From contig DASYZZ010000019.1 of NCBI GenBank assembly GCA_035945695.1, forward strand, positions 23,813 through 87,812: a DNA stretch of 64,000 nucleotides. The letters are read 5' to 3'. Of this stretch, positions 11,293-60,402 are shown piece by piece. The position numbers and the translations under genes were made by a program. Origin of the DNA: Candidatus Sulfotelmatobacter sp. GTDB lineage: Bacteria; Acidobacteriota; Terriglobia; Terriglobales; Acidobacteriaceae. The notes under the pieces were generated by a model. It worked only from the letters and a program-made list of their open reading frames with translations. It made no database searches and was not told the DNA's origin. Numbering within the stretch: the stretch's first letter is position 1; every line of letters begins with the position of its first letter.

Positions 11293-11531
11293 CTTGGGGA
11301 ACCTCCGGGAATTGCTTCCTCAGGTGGGCTGACTGCGTTACGGTGAGCGGATAGCTGAGCGGGTGCTATCGTATGTACATCCGGTTGAGATTCGTTGTCA
11401 AGAAAGAAAAACGTTTTTGTACTAAGGATTCTCCTTAATTGATTTCCGGCAACCCGGTCACCGCTCCCGGGCAACTAACGTGCGCGTTGTAACGCTGAGT
11501 AGATTTTTTATGCGCTGAATTCCGTAAGCGA

Positions 11532-13194: not shown

Positions 13195-13253
13195 CGGTTG
13201 TGCCCCAGAGGCTAGATACCAGCGATCAGCGGCTTGAGTCGCTGCGGAACGAA

Positions 13254-13304
13254 CCACTATCCGCTATTCCCTGACCACCCCCTAACCTCTAGCCCCGACC
13301 CCCT
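13254..13304 (-). repeat. Second copy of the G-tract-rich 3-prime element, just downstream of the serine-hydrolase stop
   Basis: Plus strand CCACTATCCGCTATTCCCTGACCACCCCCTAACCTCTAGCCCCGACCCCCT. Core CCCCTAACCTCT(G/A)GCCCC is shared with 1174-1226. Confidence 0.5.
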
Positions 13305-13310
13305 GTCTTC

Positions 13311-14897: not shown

Positions 14898-15010
14898 GTC
14901 TCCTCACGGTTCGTAAAATTTGCTGGCGAAGAAAATAGTCGCGGAAATTAAACCACAGAAACGCAGATTTTTCAGGTGGGTGCGTACACCACCGAAGACA
15001 TTCAACGAAC

Positions 15011-42820: not shown

Positions 42821-43885
42821 ATGAGAATCGGCATTTTGACCGGCGGAGGGGATTGCCCGGGACTGAATGCAGTCATCCGCGCCGTCGTGCGCAAGGGGGT
42901 TTTCCATTACCACGACGAGTTCGTTGGATTTCTCGAGGGCTGGCGCGGCCTGGTGGAAGATCAGAGCACGGCTCTCGACCTCGATGCGGTCAGCGGCATC
43001 CTGCCTCGGGGCGGAACGATTCTGCGTACGTCGCGGACGAATCCGTCGAAGCGTCCGGACGGATTTGAACGCTGCATCAATACGCTGAAGAAACACAGGA
43101 TTGATGCTCTGGTTGCGATCGGCGGAGACGACACGCTTTCGGTAGCTCAGAAGCTGCACGAAAAGGGTGTGAGCGTGGTGGGGGTTCCGAAAACGATCGA
43201 CAACGATCTGGGCGGAACGGATTACACCTTCGGATTTGATACGGCCTGCAACATCGTGTGCGAAGCGATCGACCGCGTGCACACAACGGCCGAAGCTCAC
43301 AACCGTGTAATGGTCGTCGAAGTGATGGGACGAGATGCGGGCTGGATTGCCCTGTATAGCGGAATCGCCGGCGGCGCCGACGTGATTCTGATTCCCGAGC
43401 GGCCGTTCGATGTAGACAAGGTGGCGGAGTCGATCCGTCAGCGGCACGAGCGAGGGCGCTATTTTTCGATCGTTGTTGTGGCTGAGGGTGCAAAGTTCGC
43501 CACAGGTGCGGGCGCTCCGGTGATCCAGGATATGGGCAAGGACGAATTCGGGCATGCCAAGCTCGGAGGCATTGCCAACATTCTCGCCCGCGAGATTGAG
43601 CAGCGCACCGGCTTTGAAACCCGCGCCGTCGTGCTCGGACACATTCAGCGCGGCGGATCGCCAAGCGCATTTGATCGCGTTCTGGCGACGCGTTACGGCC
43701 TGGGCGCCATCGATATGGTGCATCGCGGCGAATTCGGCTGCATGGCCGCCCTGCGAGCCAATAAGATTGTTTCCATCACGCTGAAGGAAGCGATTTCCAA
43801 GAACCGCGTGGTCGACGATGAGATCATTCAGGTCGCCAGCGGATTATTCGAAGAGATCGGCGCGAAGGAAGCGGCCGGCAAATAA
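42821..43885 (+). CDS. pfk: 6-phosphofructokinase (ATP- or PPi-dependent; donor not determinable by eye)
   Basis: MRIGILTGGGDCPGLNAVIRAVV, IGGDDTL, GVPKTIDNDL, MGRDAGWIAL, LGHIQRGG. Confidence 0.9.
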   Translation: MRIGILTGGGDCPGLNAVIRAVVRKGVFHYHDEFVGFLEGWRGLVEDQSTALDLDAVSGILPRGGTILRTSRTNPSKRPDGFERCINTLKKHRIDALVAIGGDDTLSVAQKLHEKGVSVVGVPKTIDNDLGGTDYTFGFDTACNIVCEAIDRVHTTAEAHNRVMVVEVMGRDAGWIALYSGIAGGADVILIPERPFDVDKVAESIRQRHERGRYFSIVVVAEGAKFATGAGAPVIQDMGKDEFGHAKLGGIANILAREIEQRTGFETRAVVLGHIQRGGSPSAFDRVLATRYGLGAIDMVHRGEFGCMAALRANKIVSITLKEAISKNRVVDDEIIQVASGLFEEIGAKEAAGK

Positions 43886-45709: not shown

Positions 45710-46981
45710 GTGAAACCGACGAAGAAAAATCAGGCTTTGATCTGGCTGCTGCTGAGCCTTTGCGTGAGCGCAATTGCGTGGTTCTATGCGCATCAGATTC
45801 TTGATCCGTGGGCTGATGCCCGAGATGCCCAAAAGGGCGGACTTAAAGCGCAGATGGGAGATATCTATCCGCGCTGGGTCGGGGCACGAGAACTTCTGAT
45901 TTATCGTCACAATCCCTATGGGGCCGATGTGAGCCACGAGATCCAGATGGCATACTACGGACACATTGTGACAGAGGAGGAATCGCGAACACGCGTTGTG
46001 GATGAACAGCGTTTCGTGTATCCCGTGTACGTTGTGTTTTTGCTCGCGCCGACCATCCACACGGATTTTGCGACGGTGCGGAGATGGGCGCCATTTGCGC
46101 TGGGCGCATTGGCGGGGCTCAGTGCTTTGCTGTGCATCGGGCTGCTCGACTGGAGTTTGCCTTGGGCGATGATCGTTGCTGTGGTTCTGTTTACGCTCGC
46201 TAGTCCGCAGATCGGGCAAGGAATTCGCCACCAGCAATTTGCGTTGCTGGTCGGATGCCTGCTCTTCGCAGGAGCGTGGTGCGTGCATAAAGGGCACTTG
46301 GCGAGCGGAGGAGTACTGCTGGCGCTTTCGACGATCAAGCCGCAGATGGCTTTGTTCCCGCTTGTCTGGTTCTTGATTTGGACAATCGGAGAGTGGCGGC
46401 CACGTTGGCGATTGCTGGCAAGTTTCGGATCAGCTTTAGGCGTGCTGGTGATCGGCGGTGCGATCTTGTTGCCCAGTTGGATCCGTGACTTCATCTCGGG
46501 TATGGCGGCTTATCGGAAGTACTTCCCTACTACGTCGATATTGCGCCTGTTGTTTGGGGACTGGCTTGGAATCGCGCTGTCGTCCGTCGTCATTATTTGG
46601 GTTTTAATCTACGGCTGGAGCCGGAGAAAAGCAGGAGGAGACTCGCGCAGTTTTGCTTCGACATTCGCCGCGTTCCTGATGGTCACGGTGATCACGTTTC
46701 CGTTGTTCACGCCGTTTAATCAGGTGCTGCTGATTCTGCCGGCGCTTCTTGTCGTGCAGGAATGGGCAAGGCTGCCTAAGGTTTCGCGGCTCGCGTTCGC
46801 GGCTGTCATTTGCTGGCCGTGGATCGCGTCATTCGCGCTACTGCTGTGGAGGCTTCCGGTGAATCCGGCGAATCGGATTCCGGTCGTCCCGGCAATTGCG
46901 TCCTCGCTGCTGCCATTGCTTCTGCCTGTGGTGCTCTTCATGCGAAAGAGCGATGTGCTGACTCAGGTTAAGGGAGCTTGA
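45710..46981 (+). CDS. GT87/DUF2029-type membrane glycosyltransferase
   Basis: Polytopic. Early loop GDIYPRWVGARELLIYRHNPYG...FVYPVYVVFLLAP resembles DUF2029 (polyprenyl-phosphate-mannose-dependent alpha-mannosyltransferase family). Confidence 0.68.
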   Translation: MKPTKKNQALIWLLLSLCVSAIAWFYAHQILDPWADARDAQKGGLKAQMGDIYPRWVGARELLIYRHNPYGADVSHEIQMAYYGHIVTEEESRTRVVDEQRFVYPVYVVFLLAPTIHTDFATVRRWAPFALGALAGLSALLCIGLLDWSLPWAMIVAVVLFTLASPQIGQGIRHQQFALLVGCLLFAGAWCVHKGHLASGGVLLALSTIKPQMALFPLVWFLIWTIGEWRPRWRLLASFGSALGVLVIGGAILLPSWIRDFISGMAAYRKYFPTTSILRLLFGDWLGIALSSVVIIWVLIYGWSRRKAGGDSRSFASTFAAFLMVTVITFPLFTPFNQVLLILPALLVVQEWARLPKVSRLAFAAVICWPWIASFALLLWRLPVNPANRIPVVPAIASSLLPLLLPVVLFMRKSDVLTQVKGA

Positions 46982-48229
46982 ATGGCAGGCGAGAATGCCA
47001 GCACTTTGGCGCGGCAATCAAGGAGTATTGATTCCTGGCTGACAGCAAAGCGTCTGTGCGCTCATGCAGCACTGCTCGGTGTAGCCCTGTGGTCGATCTA
47101 CACATGGACGCTCGCCACTCCCGGCTTGCGCGATCGCAATGGAAACTTGAAGGGCACCGACTTCCTGCACTTTTACACGCTGGGGTTGCTGGCTGATGCG
47201 CATCGCGGGACCGGCCTGTACAGCATTAGTGCGCAGACCGCGCTCGCGACTCAACGAGTCCCTGAGGCGACAGGCATTCGATATCTGCCTTTGTATCCTC
47301 CGCAGGTCTCGCTGTTTTTTGGACCTTTGGCCAGGCTCACTTACAGCGAGGCGCTTGCTGTTTGGTGGATCATCACCGCTGGGGTTTATTTCTGGTGCTG
47401 CCGGCTTATCTGGCAGTCATGCGGAAATCTGCGCAAACATAGAGCGACCACGATTGTTGCCGCGCTTGCTTTTCCCGCTTTCTTCAACCTGATTGCGTGG
47501 GGACAGACATCGGCGCTGGCTTTGGCCTGCTTCACAGTGCTGTTCTTTGCGCTGAAAAATCGACACGAGTTTGTGGCCGGGCTCGTCCTGGGATGCTTGA
47601 TCTTCAAGCCGCAATTGGGCCTTGCGGCAGCGGTGGTGTTTCTGGCGATCGGGGCCTGGAAGGTTGTGTTGGGCGCGATTCTTTCCGCGTCGGCGCAGTT
47701 GTCGATCGGAGTTCTCTATTACGGAATGGAACCACTTCGGCAGTGGGCAAGAATTCTGCGGAACGTCCGTTCTGTTTCTCAATGGCTTGAGCCGAGGCCC
47801 TATCAGACCCATTCGCTGCGCACATTCTGGTCGATGATTGCGCCTTGGAGTTCTGTCTCGGTGGTGCTGTACGGTATCACCGGCGTCCTGGTTCTGAGTG
47901 CGACGATTGCGTTATGGAGACGCGGCTCAGAGGTAATGTTGCCAGTGAAATACTCGGCGCTGTTGTTCGCGACCGTGCTGGTTGCTCCCCACCTGACTGT
48001 GTACGACTTAGTAATCCTTGCTCCTGCTTTCCTTCTTCTGGCGGACTGGCTGATTCAGGAGCAGTCAGCGAATAGCGGTATCGGAACACTTCTCTACCTC
48101 GCCTATGTTCTTCCTCTGCTTGCGCCTCTGACACGTTGGACGCACGTTCAGCTGTCTGTGATTGCGATGGCGGGGCTGGTGTACTTGCTGTGGCGCGTTT
48201 CTCAGGAGTATCGTACCCAGAATCCATAG
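46982..48229 (+). CDS. GT87/DUF2029-type membrane glycosyltransferase (second copy)
   Basis: Starts 1 nt after the previous stop. KGTDFLHFYTLGLLA...YLPLYPPQVSLFFGPLA is the DUF2029 first-loop pattern. Confidence 0.68.
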   Translation: MAGENASTLARQSRSIDSWLTAKRLCAHAALLGVALWSIYTWTLATPGLRDRNGNLKGTDFLHFYTLGLLADAHRGTGLYSISAQTALATQRVPEATGIRYLPLYPPQVSLFFGPLARLTYSEALAVWWIITAGVYFWCCRLIWQSCGNLRKHRATTIVAALAFPAFFNLIAWGQTSALALACFTVLFFALKNRHEFVAGLVLGCLIFKPQLGLAAAVVFLAIGAWKVVLGAILSASAQLSIGVLYYGMEPLRQWARILRNVRSVSQWLEPRPYQTHSLRTFWSMIAPWSSVSVVLYGITGVLVLSATIALWRRGSEVMLPVKYSALLFATVLVAPHLTVYDLVILAPAFLLLADWLIQEQSANSGIGTLLYLAYVLPLLAPLTRWTHVQLSVIAMAGLVYLLWRVSQEYRTQNP

Positions 48230-48254: not shown

Positions 48255-49121
48255 TCAGGATGACACGCGGGAGACGCTAAACAAGAATGCCAAAGCTTCG
48301 GGGAACCGGCGCGCCCATGCCGATTCGTGGTGTGTGGCTCCTTCTTCGACTTCCAGTTTCAGGCGTCTTTCATCCAAGCCGGCGCGGCGCATAATCGCGG
48401 CGAGTTCTCTTACGTCATCGACCATGCTTTGATCCCGCTCCGGGCGGCCCGCTTCGGCCGTCCCTGTCGCGAGGAAGACTCGCTCCGGCCAGTTGCGAAC
48501 TCCGCGGCTCTGACGAATCATCTGGCGGTTTGAGGCCCAGAGGGACGGACTCTCCAGCAACAGTCGTCCGATCACGCCGGGACGTGCGGCGGCGGTGTAG
48601 AGCGAGATGAGGGCGCCGAGCGAAGAGCCTCCCAGTCCCGTGTTCTCTGGGCCTGAGGCGATGCGGTAATAGCGCTTCACGAACGGCATCACTTCTTTCA
48701 TGAGGAAGTCAGGATAACGACTGCCCTGGACGCGCACGATCATTGGCTGCAGCGAACGATGCGGCAGGTATTCGCGCATTCGGTCTTTGGACGCATTGTC
48801 GATACCCACGATGATCATGGGCGGAATGACCGCTTCGCGAATCAGGCGGTCGGCCGTTTCGTCCACCTGCCACTCCACGCCGGTGAACGAGATTGCCGGC
48901 TCGAACAAGTTCTGGCCATCATTGAGGTAAAGCACGGGGTATTTTCTTCCCGCGTTCTGCGGATCGTCGTAGCCGGGCGGCAGCCATACGCGGAGGAATC
49001 GGGTGTTGTGAAAAACGCGACTCTGGAATTCGTGCAGACGCAAATCTCCAACGGCCGACTCAGCACGAATGACCGAAGGAATGGCCCGGTCCTGGGTTTC
49101 AGTTGGTTGGATTTCTTCCAT
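48255..49121 (-). CDS. Esterase family protein (enterochelin-esterase/CE1-like alpha/beta hydrolase)
   Basis: RVWLPPGYDDPQNAGRKYPVLYLNDGQNLF and nucleophile elbow GLGGSSLGALISL. Confidence 0.8.
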   Translation of the reverse strand: MEEIQPTETQDRAIPSVIRAESAVGDLRLHEFQSRVFHNTRFLRVWLPPGYDDPQNAGRKYPVLYLNDGQNLFEPAISFTGVEWQVDETADRLIREAVIPPMIIVGIDNASKDRMREYLPHRSLQPMIVRVQGSRYPDFLMKEVMPFVKRYYRIASGPENTGLGGSSLGALISLYTAAARPGVIGRLLLESPSLWASNRQMIRQSRGVRNWPERVFLATGTAEAGRPERDQSMVDDVRELAAIMRRAGLDERRLKLEVEEGATHHESAWARRFPEALAFLFSVSRVSS

Positions 49122-49154: not shown

Positions 49155-49616
49155 TCACGCTTCGGCGTTTTTAGTCCTCACCGTTATAAGGAGCGCTGTG
49201 ACGCTGATCAGGAAGATCAGGGCCTGCGAAGTGAGACACAAAATGCACCACGTCATCAACTGATAGGCCTCGATGTAGGTCAGGTAGAGCGCAAACGCAA
49301 AGCCAATGAGAGCGGCGATCAGGAGGCGGATCGGAGTCTCGGGGCGTGATCTCCAGATCGTGGCTAGCAAGAATAGAAGAGCGTACCCCGCGACACCAAT
49401 CGCCGCGACCGGAATTCCGGCCACGGTCGACCACTCGCTGCGGTTGACGATGTCGCAATTGAATTGCTGGTTGAAGTCGCAGTAGGTCGTCGCGGACTTC
49501 GCATAGTGTCGCTGGAGCGACAGGCCGGAAACAATCGCGCCGGCAAGCGACAGAATTGCAACGATCACGAAGAACGTGCGGTTGCCGCCCGAGAGTTCGC
49601 TCACGGGAGTTTGCAT
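49155..49616 (-). CDS. Vitamin K epoxide reductase (VKOR) family membrane protein
   Basis: Loop cysteines YCDFNQQFNCDIV and active-site MTWCILCL (CxxC) in a 4-5 TM protein. Confidence 0.85.
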   Translation of the reverse strand: MQTPVSELSGGNRTFFVIVAILSLAGAIVSGLSLQRHYAKSATTYCDFNQQFNCDIVNRSEWSTVAGIPVAAIGVAGYALLFLLATIWRSRPETPIRLLIAALIGFAFALYLTYIEAYQLMTWCILCLTSQALIFLISVTALLITVRTKNAEA

Positions 49617-50041
49617 CCGGTCTTGTCGCTCAGAGCTTCGAGGGACACGACGCCTTCTTTGGGCGGTTCATCGCCGAATTGCCAGCTGGGAAACAATTTC
49701 ACGCCCGCGATTTTGCAAGGCGTCGCCAATTCTCGGGAACCTTTGATGGCGCACTCTACATACGGGACGTAGTGAAACGCGTCGCCGAACATCTGCTTCT
49801 GCTCGATGCAGTGCGGACACCAGTAGAGCCCGTACATCTTGGCCTGCTTCGAGGCCAGACATTGCGCGAAGTGATCGTATTTATGATTGCGGTAATACCA
49901 ACCGGCGAAGTACGCCCCCACAAGAAGCACCACAACGATGCCGTAGCTCAGGAACTTTTTCGACTTCCCCGAAGCGTCGCTTCGTTCCTCTTGGCGTTTC
50001 CTTCTCTCTTCAGACATATTCCTCTGTTTATACCATGACAA
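49601..50041 (-). CDS. Membrane-anchored thioredoxin-like protein (VKOR partner)
   Basis: One TM (YGIVVVLLVGAYFAGW), then MYGLYWCPHCIEQK (WCPHC). 16-nt overlap with the VKOR gene. Confidence 0.75.
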   Translation of the reverse strand: MSWYKQRNMSEERRKRQEERSDASGKSKKFLSYGIVVVLLVGAYFAGWYYRNHKYDHFAQCLASKQAKMYGLYWCPHCIEQKQMFGDAFHYVPYVECAIKGSRELATPCKIAGVKLFPSWQFGDEPPKEGVVSLEALSDKTGCKLP

Positions 50042-50944
50042 TCAGGCGACAACGTTGAGAGAACCGGGCAGCACGTCGAGTTCCTCACAGTGGAGCGTTA
50101 ACACTTCCCCATCGACCATGACGTCGACTGGGTTTTCCAGACGAAACTCGATCCGCTTCGCGGCTGTCCGCTCGGCCAGCGGGTGCTCGATGTGCGTTCC
50201 ATCGTAAAGTCCCGGGAGATTGCGGATCAGACCCAAGCGGCCGATCGGTCCCCAGCGCACGTACTCGATCAACCCGTCGGAGACCTCAGCCTGGGGAGCG
50301 ATCATCATGGTGCCGCCGGTGAATTTGCTGTTATTGAAGGTCACGAAAAGGCAAGGACGCGTGTCGAATTCGTTCTGTTCCTCAACCCGCAAGGGAAACG
50401 GGCGGCGATTGAAACGGGCGAGAGTCAGGAAGATGGAGGTGAGGTAGCCGAGTTCTCCCCACGAACTGAAGCGGCGTTCGCGGAGCGTGGCCACGTCGGC
50501 GGAAAAACCCATGCTGAGCAGATTGATGAAGTGGATGACGCCCGTTCGATGCCGGAGGCGGAGAACGTCGCAAGGACGGCTTTTATTCGCGATCAGTGCG
50601 TCGATGGCATACTCGACCCCTTTGTCGCTGAAATCGCGCAAGAAGGAGTTCCCCGTCCCGAGCGGCAAGAATCCTAACGTTGGTCGCTCCGCATTCTGGG
50701 AAATGGGGAACAGTCCATTGACGATTTCATACGAAGTGCCGTCGCCGCCGACGGCGATGAAATTTCGAACGCCACGGGCGTAGGCGTCACGGGCAATCTC
50801 TGCTGCCTGGCCGGGAGCTTTTGTCGGGGCTACGTCAATCCCGAGTCCAGCAGTTCGCAGCCGGTCGAGGGCTGGATTCAGCAGCGCGCCTCGCCGGCCG
50901 CCGCCAGCGGCAGGATTCACAATCGCGAGATATTGTTGCCCCAA
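50042..50944 (-). CDS. Diacylglycerol-kinase-catalytic-domain lipid kinase (YegS/BmrU type)
   Basis: YLAIVNPAAGGGR ... NFIAVGGDGTSYEIVNG ... LPLGTGNSF. The stop abuts the next start (50042/50041). Confidence 0.85.
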   Translation of the reverse strand: MGQQYLAIVNPAAGGGRRGALLNPALDRLRTAGLGIDVAPTKAPGQAAEIARDAYARGVRNFIAVGGDGTSYEIVNGLFPISQNAERPTLGFLPLGTGNSFLRDFSDKGVEYAIDALIANKSRPCDVLRLRHRTGVIHFINLLSMGFSADVATLRERRFSSWGELGYLTSIFLTLARFNRRPFPLRVEEQNEFDTRPCLFVTFNNSKFTGGTMMIAPQAEVSDGLIEYVRWGPIGRLGLIRNLPGLYDGTHIEHPLAERTAAKRIEFRLENPVDVMVDGEVLTLHCEELDVLPGSLNVVA

Positions 50945-50978
50945 GGTGTGGTTCCAGTTTCGTCGAGCGCCCGGCGAA

Positions 50979-52688
50979 TCAGAGCGTTACTACCGCGCTG
51001 CGCTCGAACGACTTTCCGATCTCTTCCGCGAGAACCTGGCGTTTAATCTTCATCGACGCGGTGCGCGGAAAATCCTTGTCCCAAATAAGATATCCGCCGA
51101 CTCGCTTGAAATCGGGGAGGCGGCGGTTGCGCGCCGAGATCTCGTCGAGCAATTTGCTGTCGAATTTCTGATTCTGCTCGAGCCGAAGGACCAGCATGAG
51201 AGACTCGCGTCCAAGTTCCTTTTTCGGCCAGATGTAATTCGCCGCGAAGACTGCATATTCTTTTACAAGCAGGCCGTCGAAAACAGTCTCGATGTCCTCG
51301 GGATAAATATTTTTCCCGCCTTCGGTGACGATCATGTTTTTCTTCCGCCCGAATAGCTGCAGGTGACCGTGACGCTCGAAGCGTCCGAGATCGCCCGTCA
51401 GGAGCCAGCCATCGACGATGGTCTCCAGCGTGAGTTCAGGATCATCGAGATAGTGCGACATGACCGTCTTGCTGCGGACGGCGACCTCGCCCACGCCATC
51501 CTGATCGGGATTCAGAATGCGAATCTCAACGCCCGGAAGCGGCTTACCCACGGTATCCGCTCGAAACGGCTTCAGATCGTTCAGCGTCAGCGCGGTTCCC
51601 GCCTCGGAGAGGCCGTAGCCATTCACAACCGGAATGCCGAGATCGTAGAAAAATTGCATGGTCGACGGTTCCATGAATGCGCCACCTGTGATCAGGGCGA
51701 GCAGTTCCCCGCCCAATCCGCGGTGAATGTTTGAAAGCAGAAGGCGGCTGAGCTTCACATTCGGACGGCGCTTTGTAAGCACGCGGTTGATGCCGATCAT
51801 CGAATTCAGCAGGCCGCGCTTCCATGAGGGGAGTTCGTCGAACTTGGCCCGCAGTCCTCGCTCCAGGTTCTTCACGATCATCGGCACGAGCGAGACATAT
51901 GTAATGCGATAGCGGACAAAGGCGTCGCGAACGAACTCCGGACGCAAAGTTCGCAGGTGCACGACACACGCTCCGCAGACGAACGGTCCGATGAAGCCGA
52001 CCATGAAATCGATTGCATGATTGGTCGGAAGAATGCTCAGGTAACGAACTCCCGGCCAGAAGGGATACCACGCCGTGAGAGAGCGGCACTGTTCGAGGTA
52101 GTTCTCATGAGTCAGGACGCAGCCCTTGGGCCGACCTCCGGTGCCGGAGGAATAGACGATGCAGGCGACATCGTCTTTCTGGCGCATAACAAAATCCGGA
52201 GCACCTTTGCGCTTGAAATCTTCCCAGCGAAAAGCACCAGCCAAATCTGCGCCGAGCGGCGCTTCGGTGACGAGGACGATCTTGGTCGTGATCTTCTGGA
52301 ACTCGGGCGCTTGCATGATGGCGCGCCAGAGGTGGTATTCGACAATGAGCACCTTGGCCTTGGAGTGAGCCAGAAGTTGAAGGTGTTCGTCGGCCGAAAG
52401 CTTGTAGTCGAGCGGGACCACGACGCCGCCGCAGTAAAAAATGGCGTAGGCCGAGATCAGCCACTTCGACTGGTTGGTCATGATAATCGCGGCACGGTCG
52501 TTCGGGTCGAAGTCAGCGTCTTCGAGAGCGCGGGCGAGCGGGAGCGCAATCTCTTTGAAATCGGAGTAGGTGAGACGCAGTTTTTCGCGGTCGCGCTCGG
52601 CCTCGATCAGGCACACCTCGGAAGAGAACTGATCGAGAGCGTCGCGAAGGGCCGCGCCTAAGCAGGTGTATTTGCGGAGATCGAGCAT
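50979..52688 (-). CDS. Long-chain acyl-CoA synthetase-like adenylate-forming enzyme
   Basis: [21 protein letters not shown] (A3), [15 protein letters not shown]...GRKKNMIV. Confidence 0.85.
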
Positions 52689-52804
52689 GCCGAATTCGCC
52701 GAACCTTAGATTGTAGATTGCGGATGGGTAATCCGGACGCTAAGCTGCGTGGGCGTTCCTCGGCAATCAACAATCACGGACAGCAGTTAAGGATCCTTTT
52801 AGGT

Positions 52805-53047
52805 TTACATCCGCGCCTGAATCTTTCCAGCCAATGTGCGGAAATCGGTGACTCCCTGCAACTCGTAATCCGGCAATTCAACATGGAAATGGTTTTCCAG
52901 TTTCGTGAGCAGATCGAGCGTCTGCAGGCTGTCGATGCCGAGAGCTTTGAAAAAGTCATCGTCGGGAGACAGCTTTTCCCGCGGAACTTTGAAATGGGCC
53001 GCCGCGAGATTCAGGATTTCGTCGAGAGTATGGTCGAGTGTCTGCAT
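52805..53047 (-). CDS. Free-standing acyl carrier protein
   Basis: 80 aa. FFKALGIDSLQTLDLLTKLE carries the DSL phosphopantetheine-attachment serine. Confidence 0.85.
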   Translation of the reverse strand: MQTLDHTLDEILNLAAAHFKVPREKLSPDDDFFKALGIDSLQTLDLLTKLENHFHVELPDYELQGVTDFRTLAGKIQARM

Positions 53048-53065
53048 AAATGGGTTCTGTCCGGA

Positions 53066-53869
53066 TCAGGGCAAGTATGGCTGAGCGTCGGTGCTTTCCA
53101 CAAATTTCTTTAATCCCGCTCTGACTGCGGGCTTCTGAAATAACTCGCAGAAGAGATCGATCTCACGCCGCAGTTCGTCATACGGAATCGGCTTAATGAA
53201 CGCCTTGGCGGCAGCCGCCGTTCCGCGATCGAACTTGCCCATTTGAGCAGCGGTGGTGCGAGCGGCCCGCAATGCTTCGCCTTCAGAAACGACCTGGCTT
53301 ACCAGTCCGATCTGTTGCGCCTTGGCTGCGTTGAAGCTGCGTCCGGTCAATAGCAGATCGCGGACGACAGCATTGCCGAGATCGCGCTTCAGGCGCGGGA
53401 TTCCACCGAATCCGGGTACCAGGCCCAAGCGCAGCTCCGGGAAACAGAAGCGGGCCATCTTGTCAGCGATGATCACGTCGCAGACCAGTGCCAGTTCAAA
53501 ACCTCCGCCGAATGTGACTCCGTGGACGGCGGCGATTGTGGATAACGGCGACCCGTCAATTCGATTCAGCACGCGATGAATGCGCTCCAGAAAATCACGA
53601 ACGCCTTGAACAGCGTCGGACTTCTCCATCGTCTCCGAGCGCTCGTAGAGTTCGCGCAGGTCGGCGCCGGCACAGAACCCGGATTTCAGTTCGCTGTGGA
53701 TGATTAGCGCATGAGCATTTTTTTCGAAGTCTTCAAGGACGACGGCAAACTTTTCCAGTTCGGTGAGGGACAGCGATCCCAACTCATTGCAAGGCGGGCG
53801 ATGGAGCAGGAGTTCCACGACTCCACTCTTCAGCTCCCATGACAAAGCTTGTCCTCTGAATTGCTGCAC
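53066..53869 (-). CDS. Enoyl-CoA hydratase/isomerase (crotonase) family protein
   Basis: GFCAGADLRE (oxyanion hole), GVTFGGGFELALVCD and FPELRLGLVPGFGG (both catalytic Glu positions present). GTG start with AAGGA upstream. Confidence 0.85.
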   Translation of the reverse strand: MQQFRGQALSWELKSGVVELLLHRPPCNELGSLSLTELEKFAVVLEDFEKNAHALIIHSELKSGFCAGADLRELYERSETMEKSDAVQGVRDFLERIHRVLNRIDGSPLSTIAAVHGVTFGGGFELALVCDVIIADKMARFCFPELRLGLVPGFGGIPRLKRDLGNAVVRDLLLTGRSFNAAKAQQIGLVSQVVSEGEALRAARTTAAQMGKFDRGTAAAAKAFIKPIPYDELRREIDLFCELFQKPAVRAGLKKFVESTDAQPYLP

Positions 53870-53890
53870 GTCTAATCCTTTTTCAGCTTC

Positions 53891-55519
53891 TTAAACTGCC
53901 TGCCTGACCTGGTACATGTTTTCGATGTCGTCTTTCATGCGCGACGAAATCAAATCACGCTTCAGCTTGCCATTCGCCGTCAACATTCCGTTCTCGATCG
54001 AAAAAGGCTCAGGACGCAAACAAAAGGCGCGTACCTGCTTGTAATGCGGCAGATGCGGATTTACCTCATCCAAAGCCGACTGAACCTGCTCGCGATCCAC
54101 GGCGCCAGTCACTATAGCTGAAAGATATCCGCGGCCGTTGCCGACGATCACGACCTGCTGCGCCGTCGGAAGCTGGCGAGCGATTTCTTCTTCGATCGTT
54201 TCCGGAGCGATTTTGTGACCGGAGCCTAAAACGATCAGATTCTTGATCCGGCCGACGATTCGCCAAGTTCCTGTCGCTTCGATCTCGCCCTGGTCTCCCG
54301 TATGAAACCAGCCGTCTTTTAAAACCTCGGCGGTTTGTTGCGGGCGATTCCAGTATCCGGGGAAAACGTTGGGACCGCGAACAATGATTTCTTCGTTTTC
54401 GCCAAGCTTCATCTCGATCCCGGCGATGGTCGGGCCTACCCGTCCGGGAACTGGATTCTGGGGATCATCCATCGTGCAAATGCCGGTGGTCTCAGTGAGG
54501 CCGTAGACTTGCAGCACGGGGATGCCGAGCATGCGGAAGTAGTCCTGGGTCTCGGGAGTCAATGGAGCGGAGCCGCAGATGAGGGCTCGCAGATTCGCGC
54601 CGGCCATCTTCTTGCGGATCGCGGGAAATATGGCGGCATTCGCCAGCCAGAGCCAGAATCCGTTACCGTTGCGGGCCCAGTCTGCTTTCGCTCGAGAATA
54701 AACAACCAACACGACTCCGCCTTTTGTCGCGATCTGCTCGTCCACGGCGCGTCGCATGCGCTCGAGCAACTGCGGAACATTCAGGAAATAGTGTGGAGCG
54801 ACCGCGGGCATGTCGTTGGGAATCTTCGTCAGGTCTGTATTCAGAGTGACGAGACTGCCGCGCAACATGAATGAGAGCACGGCGATCCAGGACGCGCAGA
54901 AGTTGAACGGCAGGTAGTGAAAGATCCGGTCTTGCCCTGTTCGGCCTCCCATCAACTGATCGAGGCGCGCCGACGTGCATCCCAACATGAATCCCACGTT
55001 GGCCGCGGTGAGCACGACCCCTTTGGATTCGCCGGAAGTCCCCGAAGTGTAGATGATCGTGACCGGATCTTCATCCCGGACTTGTGGGCGATCGAGCGGG
55101 ACTCCTTCAACTCCGGCGAAGATTTCATCGAATAGAAAACGTGGCGGAGCTTGTGGCCAGGCCTGCTCAACGCCAGCGCGCAAGGTCGCGTCCCCGCAGC
55201 AGACGAGCGAGGGCGTACTGTCGATCATCATCGCGATCAGTTCGGCGGGCGCTTGCCGTGAATAAAGCGGCACAACGATGAAGCCCTCGGCGATCGCGGC
55301 CAGATCCAATGCGATCCAGCGAATGCTGTTCGCGGCGAGAATGCCGCAACGGTCCCCCTTCCTCAGTCTCTTTGAAGCGAGGAACGTGCGCGCTTTGCGA
55401 ACCAGTTCGAGAAATTCCGATCCTGTGACGCCGCTGATCTGGCCGTCGCGAATCTCCTGTAGCACGACCGCATTGGGCGTGGCTTTCAGTTGCAAGAAGA
55501 TTTCTCCGACGAATGGCAT
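53891..55519 (-). CDS. AMP-dependent synthetase/ligase (second adenylate-forming enzyme)
   Basis: IIYTSGTSGESKGVVLT, VYGLTETTG, TGDQGEI...GRIKNLIV. I prefer ATG 55519 (MPFVGEIF), 19 nt after the upstream stop. Confidence 0.85.
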   Translation of the reverse strand: MPFVGEIFLQLKATPNAVVLQEIRDGQISGVTGSEFLELVRKARTFLASKRLRKGDRCGILAANSIRWIALDLAAIAEGFIVVPLYSRQAPAELIAMMIDSTPSLVCCGDATLRAGVEQAWPQAPPRFLFDEIFAGVEGVPLDRPQVRDEDPVTIIYTSGTSGESKGVVLTAANVGFMLGCTSARLDQLMGGRTGQDRIFHYLPFNFCASWIAVLSFMLRGSLVTLNTDLTKIPNDMPAVAPHYFLNVPQLLERMRRAVDEQIATKGGVVLVVYSRAKADWARNGNGFWLWLANAAIFPAIRKKMAGANLRALICGSAPLTPETQDYFRMLGIPVLQVYGLTETTGICTMDDPQNPVPGRVGPTIAGIEMKLGENEEIIVRGPNVFPGYWNRPQQTAEVLKDGWFHTGDQGEIEATGTWRIVGRIKNLIVLGSGHKIAPETIEEEIARQLPTAQQVVIVGNGRGYLSAIVTGAVDREQVQSALDEVNPHLPHYKQVRAFCLRPEPFSIENGMLTANGKLKRDLISSRMKDDIENMYQVRQAV

Positions 55520-55538
55520 GTTTGAAATTGAGACTGGA

Positions 55539-56948
55539 TCAGCTGTAAGCTGCGACCAACTGCCGCAGCGAGGCATTCATGGGCGGAAGATAGTCTTCCC
55601 AGTTCCACTCGCCTCGACGCGTCGGAAACTCGGGGTAGCGGCGCTGCACTTCCTCCTCGAAGAAAACTCCCATGCGCGCCATGACTTTCAGATTCTTCAC
55701 TACAGTGCGCGCGATGCCATCGGCGATACGTTCACCCTCAGTCGCCAATTTCTCGAGTGCCGCGAGAAGCTTGGATTCGAGATCGGGATCGTCGACCGTC
55801 ATCAGCAATTCCTGATGCCCGCGCTCCCGCATCAGATTGCGAATACGCTCGTCCATGGTGATTCCCGCGGAGGGCACAAGGGCCGGCATCGAAGTAACGA
55901 TGCCGTGATAGCGCGATGAAGCCATCATGTGGCACGAACGCAGAACGCTGACCAGTTCGTACATATTGTACTGGTCTGAGCTCAGGACGGGGACGCCTCC
56001 CAGTCTCTCCGAGATGCGCTTGGCAGGACGAGCGTCGAGGCGCTCGGTTGCGGCCAGAATCACGAACACCTTGCGCTGCTTGCGGAATGCATCGACCGCA
56101 TTCCCAATCGAAGTCAGATAATGCTGGTACGCTCGGTCGGCCGCCGGGCCGGAATTGTGAAAGTAGACCGTACGGTAGTGGCTGTCTTTGAAGGCTCCGG
56201 TCAAGCTGTGCACAGCATATTTCGCAACGGATGCGCGGACCGGCCATTCAAAGGGATTGATCGGGCAGACGACCAGCACGGGAGTGTGACCGTCCCAACC
56301 GAGCTGCCGCAGAACCGACTGACCGTATTCCGCGGGCTGCGGCTCGAATGTCCAAGCCGTATCGGTGCCAAGTTCTGTGGGAACCCCAAGCTCGCGAAGA
56401 ATCGTGCGCGACTCCTCGTTGCGTGTGATGACCAGAGAGTTCTTGCAATAGCGGCCGCACATCTTCGCGACCAGCGGATCCATGTGGCCCGCCTCTGCGC
56501 CATATCCCACGGAAAGCTTGTTTTCGACGGCGGCAATTCCGAGGGAGCCGATCATCATCGTCGTGAGGGCATTGGCGAACTTGCTCTTAAACATGGAGCC
56601 TTCGCAGGCAACGACGCCGTGATGCTTACGAACTTCGTCATACAAGAAGGGAGGAAAAATGTCGGGAAGATGTACCTGCTTTGTTCCCTCGAAATATCCT
56701 TTGGAGAACTCGAACACCTGGCTCATCACGCTGAAGTCCACGCGCTCGGCCCCGAGGATGTGGCGAATCTGGCGAATCATCTCCTCCACCCGAACGTCGG
56801 AACCCATGTTGCGCGTACCGTTGTAACCCGCAAACAGGAGCTTCAGCTTTTCTCCGGGCTGCCAGGGCTTGTTGGCGCCGAGCATCCAGCGCAGCTTTGC
56901 GCGTTCGATATTGCCGCTGACCCAGGCTTCCAGAATGAAATCCATCAT
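55539..56948 (-). CDS. Polysaccharide pyruvyl-transferase-family protein
   Basis: [18 protein letters not shown] near the N-terminus and [14 protein letters not shown] (the RxHg motif I associate with PF04230). ATGATG at 56948-56943 overlaps the upstream TGA. Confidence 0.65.
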
Positions 56949-58078
56949 GCGGCGCTGCCTCCGCGGGCGGCAGGCCACGGCTGATACTTGTATTCAAAAT
57001 TGTTCTCGCGGCTGAATTTCAATAGCGGAAAGCTATACTGCGAGAACGGAACGGGCCTTCGGCCTAGCTCTGAGGTCGCGCGCGTGTTGTCGAAAACTGT
57101 GTTCCAGACCAGATACGGCATGAAAACCTTCAGCAACGTAGCCCCCTGGCCAATGGGTCCTTTGCGATTGGAAAGGAAGTTCACGGATCCGGCAAACGGC
57201 CTTTCAGTGAATGGCGCGAAAACAGGCTTGCGCTTCTGCTGAGCAGAGGCCAGTGCGTTCGTAATTTCGCGGAAGGTCTGGGAAGCGGTGCCCGAAGATA
57301 AATGATAAGTATCGTACTGCGGCTGATCTTTCTGATGCAGGGTTGCGATTGCGTCCGCGACAAAATCGACATTGACGATGTCAATTTTGTCGGTTGGCCG
57401 GAAAGGTAGCGCCGGCAGCCCGGCCAGGAATACGAAGGCCTTCACCATATCGAATTGCGTGGTTTCCGCGCGGCGACTATCTCCCAGGACGATGCTCGGA
57501 CGGAAAACAGTTTTCGGCGTGTCCGGCAATAAGACGTTCGTCATGTGCTCGCAGAATTTCTTGGTACGCGCGTACGGATCGTAGTCAGAACGATCCCATT
57601 CAATCGAGCGATCCTCCGTCACAACCTCATTGCTGCGCTTGCCCGCGACGGCAACCGTGCTGACTTCGCTGAATCGACGGAGACCGTGGTAATGCTCGGC
57701 CTGCCGGGCCAGCGTCAGCACTTCAAGCGTGCCTCGCAGATTCACATTCAAGCAGCTCTTCTCGGACTTTCGGTTCAACGATGCGGCGCAGTGAATCACC
57801 GAATCGGTGGTGTGCACCAGTCGATCGTAATTATCGCGATCGAGGCCGAATCCGGAAGAGGTCAGATCTCCGCAAAAGATTCGCACTTTCGTTTGCAAGT
57901 ACTCGTAAAACCGCGGGAAATCGAGATGCAGTTGCAAAGAACGCCACAGGCGCGCCTGGGCCTCCTGCGGGTCGCGCGCGCGTACCAGCAGGTTCAGCGA
58001 GGCGCCGTGGCCGTCAAGAAGGTTGGCGGCGACGTGCGCGCCAATGTATCCGGTCGATCCGGTCAGGAATATCGCCAC
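56945..58078 (-). CDS. Thioester-reductase-type SDR (NAD_binding_4 / male-sterility family)
   Basis: [16 protein letters not shown] (GxxGxxG), [15 protein letters not shown] (YxxxK). Confidence 0.8.
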
Positions 58079-60402
58079 GTGGCTCCGTTAGTCCCGGTCT
58101 TCACGGTGTCGCCGTTGACGGGAGTGAGTTGAAAAGTGCGGGGCGGCCGCGCCTCCAAGGGACGGCCTTCGATCAGAGGATACGTCCAGCGCCGCAACGC
58201 GGGGATATGGATGTTGATCCAGTATTCCCACCAATCGAGAGAGCGCGTGTCGTAGGCGAACTGATCTCGCTCTTCTGGGATCAGTGCGTACGACAGTTTC
58301 TCGATGTTTTCAGCGGTGAAGTCATGTTCGTTGAGCAGGATGAAAGGCTCGAACAATTCGATCAGTTTCTCAACTCGTTGCAGGTTTCGCTCGGCTTTCA
58401 CCAGGGGAGCTTTCTTCAGCGGCAGCGGTGACATGATCCGTTGAATCGATTTCACGATCGCCTTTTGTGCGGGCGCGGACATGCGGTTGTAGCGCGCCTT
58501 GGAAACGGGGATAGCGTCGAACCTCAGCCGCAACCACGATTCCAGCCCTTCCTGAGCACGATAGTGCTTGCGGTGCGCCAGAGAAGTGAGCTCGATGGAT
58601 CGTCCCATGTCGCACGGATTTGTGACGGACGTGGCTAGCTGATAGAGAGGATCATGCCGGCGCTCCATTACCGCGGCTGCAATTAAGGTCATTCCGGCGC
58701 AAACGGAGTCCACAGGGATAATGTCGAGCCGCTTGCTTTCATTCGAGGGCAACTGGCGGAAATAAGTTCCTAATAAATAGGAGAGCGAAGCCGAGGTGTT
58801 GATGCCCTCATTCCAGCCCAGGAAGGGTTTTGCCACCGATGTTTCTACGATCGCCGGCCGGACGACAGCGACGGGTAATCCGCTTCCGTACTTTGCGATC
58901 AAAGACTCGGCTAAGCTCTTGGTGAGCGTGTACGTGTTGGGCCAGCCGAGTTCCTTGGCGCGGCGCGTTCCAGCTTCCGTCAGGTACGTCTTCAGCCAAC
59001 GGACACGATTTTTGCGAATCTGGTTTTCAAGCGCCGCGCCCTGCAGATTCTTCGCGGCGTGTTCTTTGGATTGAGCCTGCATACGCAGGCCGGAGGTTAC
59101 TTCCTCGCTCTCGGAACGGGCTTCGCCTTCCTTGACGAGTTCGTACAACGAGCGCCATTCCTGCTCGGCGTCAAAGTCATCCAGACCGCGCGGATTGTAG
59201 TTTGGCGTCAGCTTCTCGCTGACACGTCCGTCCTGCTCGCCTGCGACATAGCACGTCGAGAGGTGCACCAACCCGGCGTGATCGGATGACCGGACAAACT
59301 CGAGAACATTCAGCGGAGCATCAGTATTGGTGGCAAGAGCGTCGCGCAGGTCGGGATTGAAATCGGTAAGACCGGAGCTGTTGATAATCAGATCGAGATT
59401 CGACTGCAGGCGCCGGCTGACCTGATCCGTGAAACCAAGACCCGGTTGAGTCACATCGCCTTCCACGACCTCAATCTTTTCCTGAAGAAAATCGGCGAGC
59501 TTGTCTCCGTATTTCTCGAACAGCGGATCGAAAACCGGCGAGTCTTCGATCATCTTCTGAAATCGTTGCTGTCCGGGATTCGATTTCTGGCGACGAATCA
59601 GCAGGCAGATTCGCTTGATCTCGGGCAAGTCGAGCAACGTGTTCGCGAGCCAGACCTTGCCGATAAATCCAGTTACGCCAATCAACATCACCTGCTTGCC
59701 GGCGAATGCGCGGCGCACTGAAAATCCATTGGCTTGCTTGTGCCCGTCGAAGTGAACGATCGGACGAACCGGAAATGACGATTGCCGCTCGGCAGGAATT
59801 ACCGCCCCGCGCAATTCGTCGAAGGAGATGTCGAGATGCCGCGCCAGAGTTTTCGGCGCTCGCCGGCCGTCGGGCATGTTTTCGCGGAATGGCGCAAAAG
59901 CGCCTCTTGGACGGATCACGGGCTCCAGCAAACGGCCCGTGGCGGTCCCGTCGCGGAATTCCAGACGGTTGGCGACAATGTGCCGCACTCCAAGATGCTT
60001 CGCCAGAGGTCGCATGATCTGTTCGAGCGCCTGGCTCACGAGAACAACATCCGCGCCGCTTCGAACCAGCTCCTGAACCTGGTTGACCCCGCCCTCTTTC
60101 AACCGGGGCTTCAACTTGTACTCGAAATATTCTTCCCCTAGAAGGTCGAGGCGGTCTCGGGTAACACCGCGCAAGACGGTGTGCACAACCCGCGTCGCGA
60201 ACTTGCGATTGGTGGAATAAAGAAAAGGGCGCAACAAGGCCATCACGAAGATCAGCCCGCGCCGGCGGAAGCGCTCCGTGAAGGTCTGCGCATTCCAGGT
60301 GAAAAACGCCACCGGCCTGACCACCGTCAGGTCGAGCAGGCTGCCTTCCACCCGCCAGTAGACGGTCGGAGACCCACTGGAGTTGTGGTTTGAGGAATCC
60401 AA
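58063..60402 (-). CDS. HAD-IB-like domain fused to a fatty acyl-CoA/ACP reductase (NAD_binding_4 plus FAR C-terminal domain)
   Basis: 779 aa. The N-terminal about 200 aa are HAD-IB-like ([31 protein letters not shown]). Then [13 protein letters not shown] (GxxGxxG), [15 protein letters not shown] (YxxxK) and a long C-terminal domain. TTG start. 16-nt overlap with the next gene. Confidence 0.8.

Follow-up and report, generated by a model that had tools for sequence, protein, structure and literature searches.

A conserved operon of Terriglobia centred on a pyruvyl-transferase-like protein, a candidate pathway to ether-type glycerolipid precursors

A predicted lipid operon in Terriglobia

The window analysed here is a stretch of 64,000 nt from contig DASYZZ010000019.1. 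Its genes were predicted from the sequence. An operon of eight to nine genes and about 10.4 kb was predicted at 50042-60402, with lineage-specific neighbours reaching down to 48255. This vertically conserved operon is proposed to start from a preformed fatty acid and to build a glycerolipid precursor of the non-ester (ether) type, with a probability estimated at roughly 40%. The protein at its centre is a pyruvyl-transferase-like protein, PSPT, which is proposed to transfer the enolpyruvyl group of phosphoenolpyruvate (PEP) to a lipid alcohol. As the initial annotation of the locus had considered possible, the host is an acidobacterium. It belongs to Terriglobia, and the closest relatives were found in metagenome-assembled genomes (MAGs) labelled Ca. 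Sulfotelmatobacter.

Seven co-directional genes occupy positions 50979-60402, all on the minus strand. In order, they encode a fusion of a HAD-like domain with a fatty acyl reductase (HAD-like::FAR), a stand-alone thioester reductase (TR), PSPT, a first adenylating ligase (ligase A), a crotonase, a free-standing acyl carrier protein (ACP) and a second adenylating ligase (ligase B). The junctions had been described as tight, and almost all were confirmed. The genes of HAD-like::FAR and TR overlap by 16 nt (58063-58078). The ATGA overlap of the TR and PSPT genes (56945-56948) was verified by direct reading of the sequence, and the intergenic gaps of 21, 18, 116 and 34 nt are exact. A gap of 19 nt is correct if ligase A starts at the ATG at 55519, but there are alternatives: another ATG lies upstream in frame at 55576, and a public gene call (534 aa) begins later.

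Pfam searches with each protein recovered every domain that had been claimed. Neither Pfam nor NCBIfam indicated a ketosynthase, acyltransferase, condensation or thioesterase domain in the cluster genes. The earlier proposal that a preformed fatty acid is activated and reduced by a lipid pathway, as opposed to assembly by a polyketide synthase (PKS) or nonribosomal peptide synthetase (NRPS), is supported. Among the NCBIfam models, a cut-off was passed only by the lipid kinase that follows the seven genes (TIGR00147, a subfamily model), and no equivalog cut-off was reached by the cluster proteins. Annotation alone therefore does not tell the product of the locus.

Conservation of the gene order

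One genome per species was scanned with a PSPT alignment of 16 closer sequences, and at least 564 loci encoding a relative were obtained. The counts given below refer to the best 80 of these loci, all from Terriglobia MAGs, which were typed with the proteins of the window. Across these 80 species genomes, PSPT was 81-98% identical. Ten genes encode HAD-like::FAR, TR, PSPT, ligase A, the crotonase, ACP, ligase B, the lipid kinase, a thioredoxin (Trx)-like protein and a VKOR-family protein; each of the 46 loci with sufficient length for all ten had them colinear on a single strand. Genes upstream of this array, encoding MBL-fold, gluconokinase-like and major facilitator superfamily (MFS) proteins, varied among the loci. 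As the upstream flank varied and the ten-gene order was fixed, the HAD-like::FAR gene was taken as the 5' boundary of the unit. Median identities were highest for ACP (88%), PSPT (85%), ligase B (84%), TR (82%) and the crotonase (80%), followed by HAD-like::FAR (79%), the kinase (74%), ligase A (71%), the Trx-like protein (67%) and VKOR (60%). Such a gene arrangement is, by these comparisons, far beyond chance. More than 7,700 PSPT relatives were present in a large protein collection, of which the top 120 all showed at least 89% identity and bore the label of Ca. Sulfotelmatobacter or Terriglobales MAGs. The array seemed to end with ACP in L023 and L027, two of the related MAG loci: from about 14200 onward, no gene for ligase B, the kinase, Trx or VKOR was found within 7 kb, and rearrangement or misassembly is possible.

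Synteny was also sought across Acidobacteriota and Myxococcota, a comparison foreseen in the initial annotation, and the same array was recovered in Acidiferrales-type and Myxococcales MAG loci. L084, L093 and a Myxococcales MAG kept the order of the eight genes from HAD-like::FAR to the kinase, with protein identities of 44-73% overall and of 52-73% in L084 and L093. The PSPT of L084 clustered with a protein of a Ca. Acidiferrales MAG. In the Myxococcales MAG, HAD and FAR were encoded by separate, overlapping genes and an acyltransferase gene came after the kinase. The metagenomic loci L147 and L153 showed the same arrangement.

The lipid kinase and its position before acyltransferases

The kinase (300 aa; 50042..50944, minus strand) was typed as a soluble lipid kinase of the YegS/BmrU/DagK type, with matches to PF00781 (DAGK_cat) and PF19279 (YegS_C). 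It scored 135.1 bits against TIGR00147 (YegS/Rv2252/BmrU), above the cut-off of 118.65. The gene directly after the kinase encodes a PF01553 (PlsC/AGPAT-type) acyltransferase in L084, L086, L093, L147 and L153. A CDP-OH phosphatidyltransferase gene stands beside it in L084, L093 and L147. Since these two genes come after the kinase in the sister lineages, the operon appears to feed phospholipid assembly. The order of kinase and acyltransferase is as expected for a monoradyl-glycerol-like alcohol that would be turned into a phosphatidic acid analogue. The initial annotation had named a fatty alcohol or aldehyde as a possible end product. With a lipid kinase next in line, and elsewhere also an acyltransferase, such a compound is more likely an intermediate. 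The alternative offered there, an ether-lipid pathway, fares better. It gains from the placement of the PlsC-type acyltransferase and the CDP-alcohol phosphatidyltransferase in the orthologous clusters. The fused ElbD protein of Myxococcus xanthus, to which the locus had been likened, is absent here.

PSPT as the signature protein

PSPT is a GT-B protein of 469 aa (55539..56948, minus strand). It matched PF04230 (PS_pyruv_trans) with 29.6 bits, which is above the cut-off of 25.3 but weak. PF04230 was the sole family matched by 51 of 53 diverse members of the PSPT family, with a best E-value of 1.2e-17. Against the CsaB equivalog TIGR03609, PSPT scored 54.9 bits, under the trusted cut-off of 213.1, in an alignment spanning profile positions 2-292 of 301. 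The AF2 model (pLDDT 96.8) had a GT-B fold with two Rossmann domains. Its best Foldseek matches were GT-B enzymes with a TM of about 0.5-0.66 (UDP-GlcNAc 2-epimerases, UGTs), and no solved pyruvyltransferase was among the top 50 matches. A PDB sequence search, run with the single sequence or a profile of 53 sequences, found no relatives. Invariant residues were R53, R176, D196, P236, D305, H348 and D366, the SRxH motif included. Conserved motifs were an N-terminal GYxGxxNxG(S/A)D-like motif and the C-terminal SRxH, both with a putative role in the PEP binding of pyruvyltransferases. An in-frame GTG lies 30 nt upstream (56949-56978, minus strand) and would yield a protein of 479 aa. Homologues are mostly 469 aa long, with a minority annotated at 479-480 aa. 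The start at 56948 was favoured because of the ATGA coupling and the length of most homologues.

The comparison with polysaccharide pyruvyl transferases (PF04230: CsaB, Pvg1p, WcaK) showed a common family, a near-full-length alignment to CsaB, the GT-B fold and the motifs. PSPT differs in being about 150 residues longer and in scoring below the CsaB equivalog cut-off. The clustered PSPT variants were also all in the context of lipid reductase, ligase or kinase genes and none was in a polysaccharide locus; a lipid alcohol is the presumed acceptor.

Gene fusions tie PSPT to its neighbours. PSPT was fused to ligase A in P0179, in which the ligase half scored 233 bits against ligase A and 123 against ligase B. 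In P0136, the C-terminus of FAR was fused to PSPT. The PSPT-family protein P0267 (551 aa) carried a C-terminal fragment of a GMC oxidoreductase, and a full GMC oxidoreductase gene (12543-13868) was present in L164 after a small PSPT module of the type described below. The GMC family includes long-chain alcohol oxidases. PSPT had been listed initially as an extra partner of the pathway. This view did not hold, as PSPT is encoded in every cluster variant, has a median identity of 85% and is fused to partner proteins, which places it at the centre of the system.

Ligases, carrier protein, hydratase and reductases

Ligase A (53891..55519, minus strand) is an ACSL/FadD11-like adenylating ligase with matches to PF00501 (1.6e-54) and PF23562 (AMP-binding_C_3; 9e-9). 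Its gene adjoins that of PSPT in Terriglobia, Acidiferrales-type, Myxococcales and Pleurocapsa loci, and in the small modules described below a ligase of this type is fused to a reductase. By gene neighbourhood, ligase A is the ligase that constantly travels with PSPT. Ligase B (569 aa; 50979..52688, minus strand) is of the long-chain fatty-acid ligase type (PF00501, 2.7e-67) and shares only about 25% identity with ligase A. It is probably the loader of ACP, or else a maker of acyl-CoA for the alcohol-forming arm. ACP (80 aa; 52805..53047, minus strand) matched PF00550 (9.3e-13) and has a GIDSL serine motif. The genes of ACP and ligase B are paired: they abut or overlap in L084 and lie jointly on the opposite strand in L152.

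The crotonase-fold protein (267 aa; 53066..53869, minus strand) was typed as an enoyl-thioester hydratase (PF00378, ECH_1; 4.9e-45). Both catalytic glutamates had been recognised initially, and the motifs around them, GGGFELAL and FPELRLG, were kept in five lineages. The oxyanion motif FCAGAD was kept in the same number of lineages, and no NCBIfam equivalog cut-off was reached. By its motifs, the protein is a true hydratase. No acyl dehydrogenase that would supply an ordinary 2-enoyl substrate was found in the cluster.

The HAD-like::FAR fusion (779 aa, TTG start; 58063..60402, minus strand) matched PF12710 (1.5e-11), PF07993 (2e-51) and PF03015 (2.9e-10). The FAR part consists of an NAD_binding_4 and a C-terminal Sterile domain, with the Rossmann motif GVTGFIG and the YxxxK motif YTLTK both kept. 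Its closest solved relative is the fatty acyl-CoA reductase 7eoz (E 9e-38). By sequence, FAR is of the alcohol-forming fatty acyl reductase type. The HAD-like domain scored 49.9 bits against TIGR01490, below the cut-off of 98.3. Where DxDGT is expected as motif I, the window and L084 have RVEGS(L), and the free-standing Myxococcales protein (L086) has RVEGI(L). A function as phosphatase on a phosphorylated intermediate was rejected, as the nucleophilic aspartate was absent in all three lineages examined. By these motifs, the HAD-like part is a conserved but catalytically degenerate, non-phosphatase module. TR (377 aa, GTG start; 56945..58078, minus strand) matched PF07993 (1.6e-41) and scored 123 bits against the thioester-reductase model TIGR01746, below the cut-off. 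Its motifs TGxxGxxG and YARTK were kept in four lineages.

Variants of the cluster

At 50% clustering, the PSPT family comprised 866 representatives. Of the metagenomic loci, 63 were long enough to be informative, and in 47 of these TR adjoined PSPT, with PSPT identities between 30% and 78%. TR was fused to a ligase-A-type enzyme in L094 and in about 40 metagenomic loci. The smallest arrangement, referred to as the minimal module, consisted of PSPT, a fusion of TR and the ligase-A-type enzyme of about 920 aa (reductase before ligase, lacking a carrier domain) and, last in order, a protein of 182-196 aa. It was found in L094 (10001-14694), L096-L130, L146, L158-L159 and L163-L165, with PSPT identities of 30-78%. 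The small protein had a sub-threshold match to ATC_hydrolase (PF14196), and the genes neighbouring the module in L094 resemble Firmicutes genes.

The cyanobacterium Pleurocapsa sp. encodes a further variant (L088/L089, 7069-15562), with genes for ACP, a TubC_N::NAD_binding_4 reductase, TR, PSPT, ligase A, a Rieske protein and a DUF2515 protein. The TubC_N docking domain suggests that an acyl chain is delivered there by a PKS or a fatty acid synthase. In L150-152, the order HAD-like::FAR, TR, PSPT, ligase A was kept, the ACP and ligase B genes were together on the opposite strand, and neither the crotonase nor the kinase gene was nearby. In eight loci (L128, L129, L132-L134, L136, L142 and L157), a divergently oriented DagK-type kinase gene adjoined one or two PSPT genes, the latter being tandem paralogues. 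The tandem PSPT paralogues of L129 are followed by genes for an amine-oxidase-type flavoprotein and a methyltransferase.

Judged by these neighbourhoods and fusions, PSPT, TR and ligase A form an ancient core, the most deeply conserved part of the system. In Acidobacteriota and Myxococcota, this core comes together with ligase B, ACP and HAD-like::FAR as the predicted alcohol-forming arm, with the crotonase and with the DagK-type kinase. The crotonase, the kinase and the acyltransferase would represent finishing steps of the acidobacterial and myxobacterial version.

Proposed pathway

A specific route can be drawn that leads to a bacterial glycerol ether lipid without oxygen or radical chemistry. 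In this route, the ether is made first by PSPT and the three-carbon unit is then converted to glycerol. The route in this detailed form is tentative and rated as less likely than not, below the general reading of the operon as an ether-type pathway. Initially, one ligase/reductase arm would activate a fatty acid and reduce it to the fatty alcohol. PSPT would then move the enolpyruvyl group of PEP onto the fatty alcohol and yield a 2-alkoxyacrylate, an alkyl enol ether. With a mono-alcohol as acceptor, the reaction would halt at the enol ether, without closure to a ketal. A ligase would turn the carboxylate of the 2-alkoxyacrylate into a thioester, and the crotonase would add water at C3 of this 2-substituted acryloyl thioester. 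Reduction of the thioester to the alcohol by a reductase would give a 2-O-alkylglycerol with a backbone derived from PEP. Finally, the lipid kinase would phosphorylate the alkylglycerol and an acyltransferase would acylate the remaining hydroxyl.

Precedents exist for single steps. MurA makes an enolpyruvyl ether from PEP and an alcohol, in its case a sugar hydroxyl. A crotonase-type enzyme converts methacrylyl-CoA to 3-hydroxyisobutyryl-CoA, in which a 2-substituted acryloyl-CoA is hydrated at C3. MurA/MurB and the methacrylyl-CoA hydratase are analogies to single chemical steps and not homologous systems, and the fold of MurA is unrelated to that of PSPT. 2-O-Monoalkyl glycerols occur in other bacteria (PMC5552659).

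The proposed route uses every conserved enzyme and would account for the fusions of PSPT to ligase and FAR. The presence of a crotonase without an acyl dehydrogenase would be explained, as the thioester of an enolpyruvyl ether is already an enoyl thioester. A kinase would be needed because the backbone enters unphosphorylated. The assignment of ligase/reductase pairs to the two arms is ambiguous, since the reductase-ligase fusion of the minimal module could equally be the alcohol-forming arm.

Several observations weigh against the route and, in part, against an ether-type product in general. The use of PEP by PSPT is only presumed, because the Pfam score is weak and Foldseek returned generic GT-B folds. 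The fold search confirms GT-B but does not tell whether such an enzyme uses PEP or a nucleotide sugar. PF04230 enzymes are known only as sugar pyruvyltransferases, which make pyruvate ketals and not lipid enol ethers. The Pleurocapsa, L150-152 and minimal variants lack the crotonase and the kinase, so these systems must finish otherwise. No homologue of the PlsC-type acyltransferase was found in the 64-kb window, and in the 80 closest loci no acyltransferase gene was present within 10 kb of the cluster. The homologues of planctomycetes stand alone, including that of the cultured Schlesneria paludicola, and a search for cultured carriers yielded this organism, with its lone PSPT homologue, but none with the full cluster. 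Consequently, no lipid phenotype can be matched to the operon. Monoethers reported from Acidobacteria are 1-O-alkyl compounds (PMC10087280), whereas the route predicts an ether at sn-2.

In Schlesneria paludicola (L092, JH636435.1), the PSPT homologue (10001-11446, 51% identity) has its gene immediately upstream of one for PEP carboxylase and divergent from one for an SdsA-type alkyl sulfatase. SdsA-type alkyl sulfatases release fatty alcohols. Both neighbours fit a reaction of PEP with a fatty alcohol, in this single locus.

Comparison with the elb operon and other explanations

The nearest known system is the elb operon of M. xanthus, and by its parts the locus belongs to the reductive type of ether-lipid systems. 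In elbABCDE, ElbD combines FAR-like, acyl-CoA synthetase (ACS), ACP and AGPAT domains, ElbB is HAD-like, ElbE belongs to the NAD-dependent epimerases/dehydratases and ElbC (MXAN_1529) is of unknown function (PMC9131029). The biochemical steps to the ether bond are unknown for ElbD (PMC9131029). Both systems have a HAD-IB-like protein, NAD_binding_4 reductases, an adenylating ligase, ACP and, in the sister lineages of the locus, AGPAT, and both follow a reductive logic that starts from a preformed fatty acid. A HAD-like domain and a second NAD_binding_4/Epimerase protein, possible counterparts of ElbB and ElbE, are present in the cluster. The systems differ in that the reductase, ligases and ACP are encoded here by separate genes, the HAD-like domain is fused to FAR and no AGPAT domain is present in the cluster. 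A second ligase, the crotonase, the DagK-type kinase and a PS_pyruv_trans-family protein are additional, the last among the best conserved members. By gene content, the locus is thus not an elb cluster in the strict sense. The initial annotation had described it as a disassembled, duplicated version of ElbD chemistry with extra partners. Its parts list stood, and the overlap with elb is larger than claimed, but a fused ElbD is absent and PSPT turned out to be the core. Homologues of ElbD and ElbB define the elb-like clusters known from sponge symbionts, in which diacylglycerol (DAG) kinases and acyltransferases sometimes lie close by; no pyruvyl-transferase-like gene is mentioned for them (bioRxiv 10.64898/2026.06.23.733905).

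The best surviving alternative is a pathway of the elb type. There, a fatty acid would be adenylated, loaded onto ACP and reduced, and the aldehyde or alcohol would react with an acceptor derived from glycerol phosphate, a reaction that is a proposal for ElbD too, leaving PSPT, the crotonase and the second ligase as tailoring or unrelated enzymes. The shared HAD-like protein, FAR-like reductase, ACS, ACP and second NAD-dependent reductase, together with AGPAT of the sister lineages, speak for this explanation (PMC9131029), as does the minimal-module fusion of reductase and ligase, which matches the domain order of the ElbD N-terminus (PMC9426513). However, it is PSPT that is conserved best and associated most widely, and not just the pair of reductase and ligase, and the fused ElbD is missing. 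A lipid kinase would be superfluous if the backbone came in as glycerol-3-phosphate, and a thioester-dependent crotonase with intact catalytic residues would have no role. This explanation was considered rather improbable, at about half the weight given to the ether-type reading.

Somewhat less probable still is a free or secreted reduced lipid, such as a fatty alcohol, an aldehyde, a wax or an 'NRPS-like' small lipid metabolite, in place of a membrane phospholipid. Two reductases and two ligases without a synthase would suit such a product, and an MFS transporter gene was present upstream in 33 of the 80 loci. The TubC_N docking domain and the Rieske oxygenase of the cyanobacterial variant are typical of natural-product clusters. 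The MFS gene was, however, not conserved with the cluster, and the DagK-type kinase was. It is followed in sister lineages by the acyltransferase and, in the Acidiferrales type, additionally by the CDP-alcohol phosphatidyltransferase. The PSPT identity of 81-98% across 80 species, drawn from at least 564 loci, fits a housekeeping role better.

An unlikely alternative is a glycerol-free diol lipid. The crotonase would form a 3-hydroxyacyl thioester, which would be reduced to a long-chain 1,3-diol and then capped by PSPT with a ketal or directly phosphorylated and acylated. Hydratase, reductases and kinase are all present for this purpose, and a pyruvate ketal on a diol is known PF04230 chemistry. 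Against it, no dehydrogenase is available to generate the 2-enoyl substrate, a ketal would consume both hydroxyls and leave none for the kinase or acyltransferase, and the fusion of ligase A with PSPT would be left unexplained. A chance juxtaposition of unrelated genes of fatty-acid metabolism, conceivable from domains that are common in bacterial genomes and reach no NCBIfam equivalog cut-off, is refuted for practical purposes by the order, strand and overlapping junctions conserved across Acidobacteriota and Myxococcota and by three kinds of fusion.

Two further systems resemble parts of the proposed ether-type pathway. The FAR-GNPAT-AGPS route of eukaryotes and myxobacteria begins with a FAR of the same family and would end at a similar intermediate of the alkyl-acyl-glycerophosphate type. 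Pfam searches revealed neither AGPS nor GNPAT among the cluster genes. In that route, the ether arises by exchange of acyl for alkyl on acyl-dihydroxyacetone phosphate, whereas enolpyruvyl transfer is proposed here and a kinase is required. Carboxylic acid reductases (A-T-R) share adenylation, carrier and thioester reductase functions acting on a carboxylic acid. The corresponding proteins of the window are unfused, TR and ligase A gave partial matches of 75-128 bits to NF041592 against a cut-off of 1300, and the fusion in the minimal module has the order reductase-ligase without a carrier domain. Searches of the full-text literature found nothing that links a pyruvyl transferase to ether lipids, FAR, ACP, enoyl-CoA hydratase or the gene set. 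Likewise, nothing relevant was found on FAR or ethers in Acidobacteria, on conserved NRPS-like clusters in Terriglobia or on MXAN_1529.

Implications for ether lipids in Acidobacteria

The operon has a direct bearing on where the ether lipids of aerobic Acidobacteria come from. The ether-forming Ger is carried by all other alkyl-ether producers surveyed but is missing from ether-producing Acidobacteria (PMC13159169), and ElbD is mainly limited to subdivision 4 among cultured strains of Acidobacteria (PMC9131029). Genomes of at least several hundred species, in turn, carry the operon. Its signature enzyme is very strongly conserved, and the operon encodes every predicted activity from the fatty acid to a phosphorylated, acylatable lipid alcohol. 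With eight to nine genes on about 10.4 kb, it is of a size that suits heterologous expression, which makes the ether question directly testable.

Branched glycerol dialkyl glycerol tetraethers (GDGTs) serve as proxies of past temperature and pH and are attributed largely to Acidobacteria. If the PEP mechanism is true, Terriglobia, the dominant soil Acidobacteria, would have their own ether-lipid route, possibly to precursors of branched GDGTs, and a gene marker for ether-lipid producers in the environment would be available. Ether bonds would then be known to form by one more reaction, and the pyruvyl-transferase family would have a new function. If, in addition, ElbC were a relative of PSPT, the mechanism may account for the ether-forming step of the elb system.

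Neighbouring genes

The initial annotation let the gene string run on without a change of strand into the kinase and a Trx/VKOR pair. The layout was confirmed, but Trx and VKOR are not part of the core. The Trx-like protein (49601..50041, minus strand) is membrane-anchored, has a CPHC motif and no Pfam match, and was present in 64 of the 80 loci. Its partner, the VKOR-family protein (49155..49616, minus strand; PF07884, 7.7e-25), was present in 66. The Trx-like protein was absent from the clusters L084, L086 and L093, and VKOR was not found in the distant clusters. Both were rejected as pathway members, as they are kept only in Terriglobales-type loci and an acyltransferase takes that place elsewhere. 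The MFS transporter was also rejected; it is not kept outside Terriglobales-type loci and is variable even within them.

The gene for a PF00756 'putative esterase' follows (48255..49121, minus strand; 1.9e-23) and was detected in 58 of the 80 loci. Thus, in these closest loci the kinase gene is followed by Trx-like, VKOR and usually PF00756 esterase genes instead of an acyltransferase gene. Mycolyltransferases, which can transfer acyl groups, belong to the PF00756 family. By this analogy, the protein might replace the acyltransferase that is wanting in Terriglobales-type clusters. The gene was absent from some complete related loci.

Scans for promoters and terminators gave counts not above those of shuffled sequence and were uninformative on the operon boundaries, and no tRNA genes or Rfam matches were found in the 64-kb window. 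Near the cluster, an arylsulfotransferase (ASST) gene is located at 40881-42518 (minus strand) and a phosphofructokinase gene at 42821-43885 (plus strand). An open reading frame of 328 aa without Pfam match overlaps the latter on the opposite strand and is probably spurious. GC skew changed sign at about 12000-15000: it was negative from the start of the window up to about 14 kb, positive from there to 48 kb, and near zero over the cluster; this sign pattern may merely track gene orientation. Convergent on the cluster, two abutting genes for GT87-family membrane glycosyltransferases (423 and 415 aa) occupy 45710-48229 on the plus strand. The second starts one base past the end of the first, and the one nearer to the cluster was retained in 39 of the 80 related loci.

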